Source: a virus (lineage: Duplodnaviria; Heunggongvirae; Uroviricota; Caudoviricetes). Taken from it: a stretch of 4,274 nucleotides of DNA. Shown here piece after piece: positions 1 to 4,274 of the stretch. The first letter of the stretch is position 1. Every line of letters starts with the position of its first letter. The DNA is taken from positions 1 through 4,274 of IMG/VR virus record IMGVR_UViG_2617270974_000007; one strand, given 5' to 3'. The notes beneath the pieces are model-generated. The model saw only the letters and a list, made by a program, of their open reading frames with translations, made no database searches and was not told the DNA's origin. The position numbers and the translations under genes are program-made.

Positions 1-1386
1 GGGGTCGATGGGTGACTCACTGACCGGGCTGATTTTGTTCGCCGCTTTGGCCTCCTCGAGGATGTAGCGATAATCCACCTCCGCACCATCGGTAACGGTC
101 AGAACGCCCATTTCCACCCATTTCTGAAAGCGTTCGGCTGTCCGTCGATCTTCATTTTTCTCGACGCTGTACACCGTGTCATACGGTACCCAGAAACGCG
201 GGGCCACACTGTAGTAATGCGTTTTACCGTCAATCTCGCGGGTATAAAGTCGCGCCATGCTGTTCATATCCAGTTTACGCGCCAGGTCAAAGGCCAGAAT
301 GCACGGCTGCCCCTCGAACTGCTCAAGGGTCAGTGATTTATCCTCGCAGCTCTGCCAGCTCACCAGGTTGAAATACGCCGAACGCGCCGACACCCAGATA
401 TTGAGGTGTTTTGTTTTAAAGACGTTTGCCAGACGGGCGTTATTTTTCGCACGCTGCTGCTGACTTAACAAAAATTCGCGATAAACCGACACGCCAATAT
501 TTGGATTGGCTTTTTCCAGCACCTGCGGGTCGGTCCAGTCGTCACCTTCATCAACGGTATAGATGATCCCGAACAGTTCATCGTTAGGCACCGAGCCATT
601 GAGCATCTCGATGACTTCCCGCCGCTTGTCGTAGCACGGCCCCTCAATGTTGTACCCGGCGGTGGTGATGGCCCACATCAGTGGCTGACGTCGCGCCCCC
701 ATCCCGGTAAGCATCGTGGTATAAAGCGCATCGGTGGCGTGCTCGTGATATTCATCCACCACGGCGCAGTGGGGTGATGAACCATCACCGGGGTTACCGA
801 TCAGCGGTTCAAACCGCGCGCCATCCTCCGGACGGTTCATGTTTGAGGCGTTAACCTCAATCCCGAACGCTTCCGTCAGCATGGGTGTGCGTTTACACAT
901 CAGTCGCGCCGGGCGAAAGACTTCCCACGCCTGTTTCTCTGTCGTGGCACCGGAATACACTTCCGCGCCAAACTCGTTATCACAGGCAAAACAATACAGG
1001 GCGACACCGGCAGAGATTGCCGATTTGCCGTTCTTACGGGGGATTTCGGTATACACCTCCCGGAAGCGGCGCAGCCGGGTACCTTTATTGACCCAGCCAA
1101 ACGCACAGCAGATCACAAAGAGCTGCCACGGCTCCAGCGTGATGGGCATCCGTTTGAATGCCCACTCACCCTTGGTATGCGGCAACAGCTGAATAAATTT
1201 GGCGGCCCGTTCAGCCAGGTCCTTGTCGAAGCGGTACCGAAACGACTTACTTTTTTCCGCCATCAGGTCATCAAGATGGCGCTGGCAGGCCTGAATCACA
1301 AACTGGCAGGCCACAATCTTTCCGCGCACGACATCCCGGGCATACTGATTGGCAGCATTTACGTTGGGGTAAGATTTCCGGCTCAT
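1..1386 (-). CDS. terL: Phage terminase large subunit, N-terminal 462 codons; the C-terminal end lies beyond the window start
   Basis: Minus-strand frame is open from ATG at 1386..1384 to base 1, with no stop, which is why it is not in the ORF track. Translation starts [41 protein letters not shown]. It contains a deviant Walker A motif EIPRKNGKS (about 1021..1047) and a Walker B-like hhhhDE motif [10 protein letters not shown], as in terminase ATPase domains. The ATG overlaps the upstream gene's stop as ATGA. Plus-strand ORFs in this span are antisense shadows. Confidence 0.9.
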
Positions 1387-1877
1387 GATTCGATGATTTT
1401 CAGAAACGGGTTAGTGGCTTTCTTCTGTCCCGCCAGGCCAATCAGACGCTGGCGGCTGCTGGGGTCGAGTCCGAGCATTGCCCCCGTGCTGCTCATCTCG
1501 GACTCCTGTTCTTTTTTGGCGGTCAGCTCAGGATTTTTGACCATACCGCCCATTGCACCGGTGATGGTGTTGCCCTGTCTGGCAATATTTTTCACGGCAC
1601 GTCGCCAGAACTCGTAGGCCACGCACCACCGCTCAAGCACCGCGAGGTCAGTCACGCACAGCAGGCCCTGACCGCAGAGTTCTTTAGTTGTCAGTTGCCA
1701 CATGATCGTAGCGAGAGGGAGATCTTCTTCAGCGAACCACTCCGGTGGCTCAACACCTTTGATGGGCGTAAAAACAGGTTCATCTTTATTCAGGGCTCGC
1801 TTGCCGGGGTTTCCGGCCAGCGCCTTGCGCGCCGTTGGCTTGGGGCGACGCCCGGAACGCCCCGCCGTTCCAGCCAT
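1383..1877 (-). CDS. terS: Phage terminase small subunit, P27 family
   Basis: Complete minus-strand ORF. Preferred start is ATG at 1877..1875, 8 nt after an AGGAG ribosome-binding site (1890..1886); the track's GTG at 1886 sits directly against that site. Product starts [34 protein letters not shown], with the GNPGKR motif I recognise from P27-type small terminases. Stop TGA at 1385..1383 overlaps the terL start. Confidence 0.85.
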
Positions 1878-1885
1878 ATGCGGCA

Positions 1886-1890
1886 CTCCT
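1886..1890 (-). promoter_or_regulatory. Shine-Dalgarno sequence AGGAG for terS
   Basis: Minus strand reads AGGAG-TGCCGCAT-ATG, giving an 8-nt spacer to the ATG at 1877. Confidence 0.5.
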
Positions 1891-2002: not shown

Positions 2003-2353
2003 TTACTTCAGCCGTTCACGGGCCGTCTTCGCCTTATGACACGGCCAGCACAGGCTCTGCAGATTACTGTCGGCATCAGAGCCGCCATGCGCTTTAGGGA
2101 TGATGTGATCAACGGTTTTCGCTTCACGCACCACACCGGCACGCAGACATAACTGACATAAACCTTTGTCACGTTTCAGCACACGCGCGCGGATAACGTC
2201 CCACTTCGAACCGTAGCCGCGCTGATGACGGGATTGTCCAGGTTTGTATTGCTTCCAGCCTTCGCTTTTGTGGCTTTCGCAATAACCTGACGGGTCTGTG
2301 GTTATAGAGCGGCAGCCGCGAACACGGCAGGCCTTTGGGATTCGTGGTGGCAT
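2003..2353 (-). CDS. HNH homing-type endonuclease, packaging-associated
   Basis: Complete 116-aa minus-strand ORF. It has an N-terminal Cys-rich segment (CRVRGC...C..H), an HNH core DHIIPKAHGGSDADSNLQSLCWPCH and a second zinc-binding Cys pair. Its position immediately upstream of terS/terL is characteristic of cos-type packaging modules. Confidence 0.85.
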   Translation of the reverse strand: MPPRIPKACRVRGCRSITTDPSGYCESHKSEGWKQYKPGQSRHQRGYGSKWDVIRARVLKRDKGLCQLCLRAGVVREAKTVDHIIPKAHGGSDADSNLQSLCWPCHKAKTARERLK

Positions 2354-2563
2354 GGGTGTTCCAAAATAAATAAACGCTAGCGAATTCTAGTAGCTTGAAT
2401 TGAGTGTGATGGCCAGTACTGAACTTGAATCCGATTCGGTGTCAGCTTGGTTTTAGGCGATTACGCACAATTTGTTTTCCCTCATCAGACCAGGTTTTTA
2501 ACCCATCATTATATATATACCCATCACCAAACTACGGCTTCCAGTAGGTTACTGTGTTTAGCA

Positions 2564-2593
2564 TGAGTATTTTGTGGTATAAGAAAATACTCA
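2564..2593 (+). promoter_or_regulatory. Perfect 10-bp inverted repeat TGAGTATTTT-(10 bp)-AAAATACTCA upstream of the small plus-strand ORF; candidate operator or 5' UTR hairpin
   Basis: Arms at 2564..2573 and 2584..2593 are exact reverse complements. The spacer GTGGTATAAG contains a -10-like TATAAG (2578..2583), and a weak -35-like TGTTTA (2555..2560) lies 17 bp upstream. The repeat ends 19 nt before the ATG at 2613. The promoter assignment is by eye only. Confidence 0.35.
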
Positions 2594-2612
2594 ATTCTTG
2601 GGAGAAGAAAAC

Positions 2613-2894
2613 ATGCCAAAAATTCAATTTGATGCAAAAAGTGGTGAAATGAAGGTTGAGGAAGAAATTTCCAAGATCACCATTGATGATAAAGGCTTAG
2701 TTAAAGCTGAAGAGTCTGTAGTTAATGGAAATACCGTTAAGTACTTTGAGTATGAAAATGGTAGCCATATCACTATTACCCAAAAAAACGGATCCTCTGA
2801 GATTTCATCTCATAATATCCAGACAACAATAAGCGCTGACCCTGAAAAGCCTGGTTTTGTGACTATGACTTACAGAATGGGGTCAGGTAGCTAA
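2613..2894 (+). CDS. Hypothetical small protein (93 aa) in an AT-rich moron-like cassette; function unknown
   Basis: ORF with ATG at 2613, 8 nt after a GGAG ribosome-binding site (2601..2604); the track's TTG at 2598 overlaps that site and is unlikely. Product is MPKIQFDAKSGEMKVEEEISKITIDDKGLVKAEESVVNGNTVKYFEYENGSHITITQKNGSSEISSHNIQTTISADPEKPGFVTMTYRMGSGS. It is hydrophilic, mildly acidic, with no signal peptide or transmembrane segment and no motif I recognise. GC is about one third (20 of the first 60 nt), against clearly GC-rich neighbouring phage genes. It is on the opposite strand to the phage genes and is followed by a terminator. Confidence 0.6.
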   Translation: MPKIQFDAKSGEMKVEEEISKITIDDKGLVKAEESVVNGNTVKYFEYENGSHITITQKNGSSEISSHNIQTTISADPEKPGFVTMTYRMGSGS

Positions 2895-2921
2895 CTTTCA
2901 TTTCAACAAGAGCGGAAAATC

Positions 2922-2957
2922 AAAGCGGCTCATATTGAGCTGCTTTTCATTATTTTC
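2922..2957 (+). terminator. Rho-independent terminator, possibly bidirectional
   Basis: Stem GCGGCTC (2925..2931) pairs with GAGCTGC (2937..2943), with one G-U pair and a 5-nt loop ATATT, then TTTTCATTATTTT. It starts 30 nt after the ORF stop. On the minus strand the same hairpin is followed by TTTGATTTTCC, so it could also stop transcripts coming from the lysis side. Confidence 0.6.
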
Positions 2958-3164
2958 TGCATCCACACTTTCGCAATGGCCGCGATCATGCCCTTGAGAC
3001 CATGTGTCAGGGGTATCTCGTGAATCCCTCATAACTAACCGGAAGCTGACTGGCTATCAGCCTAGAGCACCGGTGCGCTTCTTCCCGTTAACCCTCACCA
3101 GTGCGCTCTCAGCTTTTTACCTGAAACTGGCTACCAGCAACTTTGAGTATTCGGGGCAGCGTCA

Positions 3165-3434
3165 TTACTGCTGCATTGACACTACTTGCTGCGGTCTTTC
3201 CGCTTTACAGCTTAATGGCCAGCTCCTCTCTGCCTCAATTTTACGAATATCAGCTTTATCACTATTACAGGCAGCCAGAGCCGACAACAGACTCACATTC
3301 AAATCCAAGCTTCCACCGTAGGTCAATGGATCAGGAATAACCGGTTGCGGGGTTTCAGCGGTCAGGTTCGCCGGTAGTGGTATCACCGGAACTGGCACGT
3401 AAACTGTCCGCGTACCGGCGCAACCGGTCAGCAG
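3165..3434 (-). pseudogene. Rz1-like outer-membrane spanin lipoprotein, N-terminally truncated by the IS insertion
   Basis: Minus-strand frame is open from the IS junction to TAA at 3167..3165. It reads LLTGCAGTRTVYVPVPVIPLPANLTAETPQPVIPDPLTYGGS..., i.e. a lipobox LTGC followed by a proline-rich stretch, the hallmark of Rz1-type o-spanins. No signal-peptide start is left on this side of the IS. The track shows only the GTG-initiated 77-aa part (3165..3398). Confidence 0.4.
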
Positions 3435-3435
3435 C
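3355..3435 (-). pseudogene. Possible C-terminal remnant of an Rz-like inner-membrane spanin, overlapping the Rz1-like frame
   Basis: A second minus-strand frame is open from the IS junction to TGA at 3357..3355, giving AADRLRRYADSLRASSGDTTTGEPDR. An open frame ending inside the start of an Rz1-like frame fits the overlapped Rz/Rz1 gene arrangement. A 26-aa fragment is weak evidence on its own. Confidence 0.25.
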
Positions 3436-3436
3436 G

Positions 3437-4274
<838 letters not shown>

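Follow-up and report, generated by a model that had tools for sequence, protein, structure and literature searches.

The inverted repeat at positions 2564-2593 is, in the reading that we favour with moderate confidence, a palindrome specific to one lineage that overlaps the putative core promoter of a moron, in which the conserved functional element would be the extended -10-like centre. Perfect arms occur only in the E. coli/Salmonella-type lineage of the cassette and are degraded or absent elsewhere. The symmetry of the arms most likely represents a young, lineage-specific palindrome in AT-rich promoter DNA, which may have originated by chance or from an imperfect palindrome that was perfected or maintained by replication template-switching, and if the arms act at all, they would do so at the DNA level, with a dimeric protein bound there and occluding the promoter.

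The window, i.e. the whole 4,274-nucleotide stretch of DNA that was analysed, belongs to an E. coli prophage whose head genes are of the HK97/P27 type and whose tail is contractile, and all of its phage genes are located on the minus strand (Table 1). The cassette is positioned between the spanin genes and the HNH/terminase genes, on the opposite strand to both. The HNH start codon (2353) marks the end of homology with 890 other E. coli prophages, which is restored at approximately 2963, and the GC content is 0.35-0.40 over positions 2401-2900 compared with 0.51-0.62 in the flanks (~55%). In related prophages, the same slot contains other cargo, namely a plus-strand ORF of 131 aa (L017) and an S1 peptidase (L019). 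The homology break, the dip in GC content, the cassette's own terminator-like site, and the presence of other cargo in the slot together indicate that positions 2354-2962 constitute a classical moron cassette. As judged from the DNA, the segment is a moron by insertion, base composition, and terminator, the last being identified by a pattern match; a weaker terminator-like site is present at 2940-2928 on the minus strand. Its own promoter may be represented by the conserved extended -10-like block, which has a weak consensus score in the window. The proposal of an earlier sequence-only reading that the gene is part of a cassette was borne out, with the addition that the cassette is inserted and has its own terminator-like site. 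The cassette is rare, being found in 2 of the 5426 complete E. coli genomes, with 100% identity; the exact cassette protein was nevertheless present in 527 assembly blocks, with related proteins in further sets of 72, 41, and 141 blocks, and no DNA or protein match to the cassette was obtained in phage and plasmid collections.

Table 1. Features of the window and upstream types of the related cassettes
Feature	Position	Strand	Sequence	Pairs	Remarks
TerL, partial	1-1386	-			
TerS	1383-1886	-			
HNH endonuclease gene	2003-2353	-			Left neighbour of cassette in late operon
Inserted cassette (moron)	2354-2962	+			609 bp, antisense to late operon
Weak -35-like hexamer	2555-2560	+	TGTTTA		17 bp upstream of TATAAG
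Left arm of inverted repeat	2564-2573		TGAGTATTTT		About -26 to -17, spacer of putative promoter
Conserved core, candidate extended -10	2574-2587	+	GTGGTATAAGAAAA		i.e. (G/A)TGnTATAA(G/A)AAA
Right arm of inverted repeat	2584-2593		AAAATACTCA		About -6 to +4 of putative promoter
Shine-Dalgarno-like sequence	2600-2604	+	GGGAG		8 nt before ATG 2613
Cargo gene	2613-2894	+			93-aa ORFan WP_033866617.1 ('hypothetical protein')
Intrinsic-terminator-like hairpin and T-run, cassette end	2922-2946	+	TCATTATTTT after the stem	11	Pattern match
lysC remnant (Rz1-like spanin gene, overlapping Rz)	3165-3436	-			Right neighbour of cassette, cut by IS element
IS3-family element ISEc31	3437-4274				99.5% identical to ISEc31 copies
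Clade 2 cargo gene, example	L003 6001-6276				
E. coli/Salmonella type (window)			TGAGTATTTT-GTGGTATAAG-AAAATACTCA	10/10	
L016 type			Centre G2577A (TGA TATAAG)	10/10	
L014/L231			T2573C	9/10	Innermost pair broken
Citrobacter type			TTAATATTTT-ATGGTATAAG-AAAATATTCA	9/10	
L046 type			Citrobacter type with extra T in T-run		
L229/L230 type			TTAATATTTT-ATGGTATAA-AAAACACTCA	7/10	
Clade 2a			TTCACT-N17-TATAAG AAAAAACCTA		No repeat
Clade 2b			TTCACA-N17-TATAAG AAAAATCCAA		No repeat

Morons of lambdoid phages, such as lambda bor and lom and the HK97/HK022 morons, are described as autonomous accessory cassettes (Juhala et al. 2000; Cumby et al. 2012; both cited in PMC7067206), and antisense orientation to the lytic genes is given as a characteristic of accessory loci (PMC7067206). 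The gene of the window resembles these morons in being a single gene that is located between two conserved phage genes and is absent from close relatives. The cassette likewise has a base composition unlike that of its flanks, its own terminator-like site, and an antisense orientation to the lytic genes, and its slot carries different cargo in different prophages. It differs from them in that both its promoter and its expression in the lysogen are putative and in that the protein belongs to no described family, so that no lysogenic-conversion phenotype can be assigned.

Several other features of this region were also observed. The spanin/HNH junction is a hotspot for cargo (2354-2962 in the window, 1923-2500 in L017, and 1476-2500 in L019); the 131-aa ORF of L017 is preceded by the palindrome ATGAGATCTCAT, and the S1-family peptidase gene of L019 is on the minus strand. 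A second inverted repeat is present at the left cassette edge of the Citrobacter and L229 lineages in two forms, AGCTACTAGA/TCTAGTTGCT and AGCCACTAG/CTAGTGGCT (L013 1635-1658 and L229 222-245, equivalent to approximately 2373-2396 of the window), between which a T:A pair is replaced by C:G with both sides changed. Read on the minus strand, this repeat precedes TTTATTTATTTT, close to the HNH start on its upstream side, and so looks like a terminator; the window contains CGCTAGCG...CTAG at this position instead. The gap between the HNH and TerS genes (1887-2002) contains G/C-rich runs (GGGGCGGGCAG ... CCCGCCCCTCCCC), and in HK97-like phages with an HNH gene beside the terminase genes the cos site lies in a position of this type. 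On the right side, the identity of the window with intact prophages ends at 3436, indicating truncation of Rz/Rz1 (lysC), and this prophage copy is thus probably lysis-defective through the insertion of ISEc31 in the spanin region.

The cargo protein is acidic (pI 5.1), and its AlphaFold2 model is all-beta, with nine beta strands and a pLDDT of 85.5; no significant structural neighbours of this model were found. Searches of Pfam, PHROGs, PADLOC, and NCBIfam yielded nothing above threshold, with weak sub-threshold matches in the first three only, and protein patterns identified no relative in the GTDB representative genomes. The protein, acidic and predicted to be all-beta, shows no DNA-binding fold, and nothing points to a role as a DNA-binding autoregulator. 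Close variants belonging to the same clade were collected by cluster look-ups, and their contigs were then compared. Citrobacter-type cassettes (L013 1874; P0002 and P0018) have a GTG start codon, not ATG, and the Shine-Dalgarno sequence AGGAG, and frameshifted versions of the protein (72 aa) are present in metagenome contigs. An exhaustive HMMER search identified one true distant clade (clade 2), consisting of P0003, P0019, and P0020 (91 aa, 41-45% identical, about 42%), and the matches P0004-P0009 were rejected as homologues, being repeat proteins that match short beta-hairpin stretches. Clade 2 is found in P22-like prophages (Terminase_3, DUF2280) of Citrobacter, Enterobacter, and E. coli, where the gene again runs against the late genes and has the lysis region on one side and the packaging genes on the other, with only 82 bp to a divergent gene. 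The two clades thus occupy analogous antisense positions in two unrelated backbones, one with an HNH/P27-type terminase and the other with a P22-like Terminase_3.

The arms of the repeat are exact reverse complements (10/10 pairs) separated by the 10-bp loop GTGGTATAAG (2574-2583), which contains TATAAG at 2578-2583, and the repeat ends 19 nt (ATTCTTGGGAGAAGAAAAC, 2594-2612) upstream of ATG 2613, the RefSeq-annotated start of WP_033866617.1; the geometry given in the sequence-only reading was confirmed on both counts. The first four A residues of the right arm are shared with the conserved core block. No other perfect inverted repeat with arms of 10 bp or more and a loop of 0-20 occurs in the 4274-bp window. 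When dinucleotide-preserving shuffles were scored for at least one such repeat, 7 of 2000 contained one for the 259-bp intergenic region, 35 of 2000 for the cassette (607 bp), and 17 of 300 for the whole window. The repeat is improbable in a short region, as had been claimed; it is unusual locally and is not extraordinary across many windows, with about one chance case expected per 17 windows of 4 kb.

The centre of the repeat is better conserved than its arms. With the distinct upstream haplotype as the unit of comparison, the core block is invariant, apart from the alternatives given in Table 1, across both clades (11 upstream haplotypes) and lies 27-30 nt ahead of the start codon. Between the clades, 13 of its 14 positions match, compared with identities of 57.5% in coding DNA and 36% at third codon positions, which are saturated, and a match of this extent despite saturated third positions indicates that the core block is under selection. 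In extended -10 elements of the TRTG type, a single base separates TG from the hexamer and position -16 is a purine, and the core block can be read as an element of this kind. The observation that the repeat brackets a -10-like TATAAG was strengthened, because TGnTATAA(G/A)AAA is the one upstream block common to all relatives, at a constant distance from the start codon. The block resembles extended -10 promoters such as galP1 in its TG before TATAAN, its purine at -16, its poor -35 region in the lineage of the window, and its A-rich discriminator, and differs from them in that the hexamer ends in G or A in the family of the window, whereas the final T of these promoters is highly conserved; the consensus T was found at the last position in no member.

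Candidate promoters were scored with a crude sigma-70 matrix built from textbook base frequencies. In clade 2, TTCACT or TTCACA with TATAAG at a spacing of 17 bp, the hexamer being preceded by TGC, is the top plus-strand candidate, with scores of 7.7 and 9.0 bits, and 9.0 bits was reached by 80 of 1000 shuffles. The corresponding candidate in the window, TGTTTA-17-TATAAG, scores 0.7 bits, and the best plus-strand candidate in its upstream region, ATGAGT-17-AATACT (5.0 bits), is formed by the arms and is equalled or exceeded in 991 of 1000 shuffles. A promoter/terminator scan of the window detected no plus-strand promoter and no terminator at the repeat on either strand. In view of the score of 0.7 bits, the G at -7, and the outcome of the shuffles, the promoter is assigned here from how well the block is conserved and where it lies, and not from its consensus strength, and with G or A at -7 the promoter may be weak or factor-dependent, or the block may be no promoter. 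If the assignment is correct, the left arm would form the spacer, and the right arm the discriminator and start region. Transcription would start at approximately 2590, or at approximately 2598 from the overlapping ATGAGT-17-AATACT candidate; a start inside or after the right arm would leave the left arm untranscribed, and the mRNA would thus lack the hairpin.

Other signals were noted in and around the core. Positions 2574-2582 also form a mini-ORF in every haplotype (GTG GTA TAA, GTG ATA TAA, ATG GTA TAA, or GTG CTA TAA); a conserved Shine-Dalgarno sequence before these three codons is absent across the haplotypes, and the same bases are explained by the extended -10 reading. A sigma-54 promoter was rejected: the TGG at 2575-2577 is not followed by GC 10 nt downstream, and its last G varies (TGA in the L016 type and TGC in clade 2). 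On the minus strand of clade 2, the -35-like hexamer TTGGCA lies over the cargo start codon (L037 1474-1512; L003 5973-6012), with TAAAAT at a distance of 15 bp (L037, clade 2b) or AATTAT at 16 bp (L003, clade 2a); this candidate would be directed towards the packaging genes and scores up to 10.8 bits, a value reached by 34 of 1000 shuffles.

The sequence-only reading had named conservation in related cassettes as a check on the repeat, and the arms were found to be poorly conserved, with 9/10, 9/10, and 7/10 pairs in close relatives and no repeat in the ~42%-identical clade, where no inverted repeat was detected upstream of the gene. Absence of the repeat from otherwise similar cassettes, an outcome of the kind that the same reading named as refuting its proposal, was observed to a large extent: one base, which breaks the innermost pair, is all that separates L014/L231 from the window over the 80 upstream nt that were compared, and this holds for L014 across the full 609-bp cassette as well. 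Cassettes whose proteins share 90% identity or more already show the decay to 9/10 and 7/10 pairs. Pair 2 is broken by G2565T in the Citrobacter type, in which G2567A and C2590T keep pair 4 with both sides changed; the L229 type has G2565T and G2567A without C2590T, plus T2588C. The E. coli and Citrobacter types differ at 4 of 30 positions in the arms and loop, 30 of 210 in the rest of the upstream region, and 14 of 282 in the coding sequence, indicating that the arms evolve like the neutral-looking flanks and that the gene is under purifying selection. The stability of the predicted hairpin is not conserved. In the window it has an energy of -10.2 kcal/mol (z = -5.1; none of 200 shuffles as stable), compared with -8.0 kcal/mol in L014, -1.3 kcal/mol (z = -0.2) in the Citrobacter type, -2.5 kcal/mol in L046, and 0 and -0.4 kcal/mol in clade 2.

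The statistics for pairing were not significant. Counted over eight haplotypes, pairing was 75.6% compared with 72.2 ± 1.8% in shuffles (reached by 40 of 500), and the covariation score was reached by 28 of 500 shuffles; because false positives with related sequences are stated for the tool, neither value was taken as support. In a simulation at the substitution rate of the flanks, at least one compensated pair arose with a probability of 0.076, at least 9/10 pairs with 0.23, and both together with 0.02. The double change G2567A and C2590T is the sole evidence for selection on the arms and is suggestive at best. The L229 type, with G2567A and without C2590T, indicates that the uncompensated intermediate persists in nature, and template-switch mutation at imperfect palindromes, which introduces both-sided changes in one step, is an alternative source of a compensated pair (PMC7202029).

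Another explanation of the repeat is that a dimeric repressor, encoded by the host or elsewhere in the prophage, binds both arms, covers -26 to +4, and blocks RNA polymerase; with 20 bp between their centres, the arms share one face of the helix, and the cargo gene would be off until a signal, a regulation specific to the E. coli/Salmonella-type cassette. We regard this as rather unlikely. In its favour are the perfect and locally rare dyad, which overlaps the putative core promoter around TGGTATAAG and brackets the conserved -10-like block, and the both-sided change in the Citrobacter type, which keeps the half-sites alike (chance 0.076). The palindrome upstream of the other cargo gene in the same slot (L017) also makes operators in such cassettes plausible. 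LexA boxes, lac O1, and toxin-antitoxin operators are palindromes over the -10/start region, usually 14-22 bp in length with little or no non-symmetric centre, and known palindromic operators have half-sites that are conserved among orthologous promoters and an identifiable cognate regulator. The dyad of the window is like these operators in its location over the putative core promoter, from which a bound dimer would exclude polymerase. It differs from them in its 10-bp arms with a 10-bp gap, in the lack of conservation of the arms, and in that no regulator is evident; a non-symmetric gap of 10 bp between 10-bp arms is unusual among known operators. Near-identical cassettes retain imperfect arms, clade 2 lacks them and keeps the core, and the arms change as fast as the flanks. 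The cassette contains no regulator gene, its sole product being acidic and all-beta, and the identical repeat coexists with different immunity repressors (XRE-type in L001 and the LexA-like YmfK in L002), which argues against a prophage repressor. When 24.6 kb of the prophage, immunity region included, was searched for the half-site with one mismatch allowed, only the two arms and one chance-level match were obtained, and a 42-mer search of the 5426 complete E. coli genomes recovered only the cassette itself. The exact arms with variable spacing gave at least 120 matches in viral and genome collections, in unrelated taxa, which is close to the approximately 95 expected by chance (596 Gb x 11 spacings / 4^18), and the sole enterobacterial match among those listed was the same cassette. 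The operator for a dimeric repressor that the sequence-only reading had put forward thus gained no support from conservation, a cognate regulator, or a second site. Two known boxes were also considered and rejected: CTGT-N8-TGAG at 2552-2567 does not fit the LexA consensus CTGT-N8-ACAG, and TAAGAAAATACTCA, which we take to resemble the RcsAB box at 10 of 14 positions, is in the wrong position for activation. Owing to the symmetry of the arms, both strands also read (T/A)TGAGT, 17 bp, AATACT, and polymerase could accordingly bind either way and start rightward at approximately 2598, into the cargo gene, or leftward at approximately 2559, towards HNH/terminase, the two being mutually exclusive. 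This arrangement is highly improbable. TTGAGT-17-AATACT (8.8 bits) and ATGAGT-17-AATACT (5.0 bits) are the top candidates on the minus and plus strands, respectively, of 2354-2625, but such scores are ordinary for AT-rich DNA, being reached by 392 and 991 of 1000 shuffles, respectively, and neither the Citrobacter type nor clade 2 retains the hexamers. In bidirectional sigma-70 promoters, -7T and -11A pair reciprocally and 18 bp separate the two starts (Warman et al. 2021, as described in PMC10268837), and a G or A at -7, which places C or T at -11 of the opposite strand, does not provide this geometry. It is likewise improbable that the palindrome, as the same promoter on both strands or as the sole operator for a repressor, couples expression of the cargo gene to antisense late transcription or shields it therefrom.

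The remaining explanations place the function of the repeat in RNA. If transcription started upstream of 2564, the arms would form a 10-bp stem 7 nt before the Shine-Dalgarno sequence that stabilises the mRNA or modulates translation. Given its composition the stem is strong, it folds within the surrounding sequence with the Shine-Dalgarno sequence left free, and one of its pairs covaries, yet this possibility is very doubtful: the scan of the window gave no sigma-70-like plus-strand promoter upstream, and plus-strand candidates starting before 2564 score at most 4.4 bits, below the 5.0-bit best candidate that was itself matched by 991 of 1000 shuffles. The Citrobacter type has neither of the two G-C pairs of the stem, the pair statistics over the eight haplotypes are not significant, and clade 2 has its 82 bp to the divergent gene without a hairpin. 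No Rfam family matched the repeat at a permissive threshold. The 5' UTR hairpin offered by the sequence-only reading is therefore disfavoured by the candidate starts at approximately 2590 and 2598 and by energies that fall from -10.2 through -8.0 and -1.3 to 0 kcal/mol. A pairing of TTTAGCAT (2557-2564) with ATGCCAAA (2613-2620), which was seen in folds, needs a start upstream of the conserved block and was consequently not adopted. An intrinsic terminator was also rejected, since the repeat was called on neither strand and has two G-C pairs, a 10-nt loop, and the tail ATTCTTGGG. In the antisense RNA, the hairpin might instead be a processing or pause site in the late (minus-strand) transcript upstream of HNH, which requires the late operon to read through the cassette in antisense. 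On the late strand, the cassette does have the lysis genes on one side and HNH/terminase on the other, and in the minus-strand fold the stem recurs as part of a larger structure (-16.5 kcal/mol, z = -2.7; 1 of 200 shuffles as stable). This is nevertheless extremely unlikely: no T-run follows the stem on either strand and no terminator was called, the stem is 210 nt from the HNH start codon, its stability is lost in relatives, and prophages with other cargo or without the repeat keep the same late genes. The lineage-specific palindrome over a conserved extended -10-like centre, which we prefer, has points against it as well. A 10+10 repeat is locally rare (7 of 2000) and is centred almost exactly on the -10-like block, where an operator would sit; the both-sided change in the Citrobacter type has a probability of 0.076, or 0.02 together with at least 9/10 pairs; and the promoter candidate of the window scores 0.7 bits, its TATAAG lacking T at -7. 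The view that the gene looks regulated whichever of operator or hairpin applies was left unsupported, as neither the arms nor the hairpin energy is conserved.

These data indicate that the cassette is an uncharacterised addition to a well-known kind, the morons. The window carries a textbook moron with an uncharacterised ORFan, confidently predicted to be all-beta. In Enterobacteriaceae, two unrelated prophage backbones carry this ORFan, and what is conserved upstream of it is a non-consensus extended -10-like block, not the palindrome. For an operator, the natural haplotypes with 10/10, 9/10, 7/10, and 0 pairs around an unchanged core would constitute a ready-made allelic series. If the palindrome were a two-strand promoter or sole operator, it would represent a lineage-specific regulatory layer that was acquired after the moron moved between phage types, and if the arms were an operator, the cassette would show in compact form how a cargo gene that moves horizontally can acquire repression of its own.
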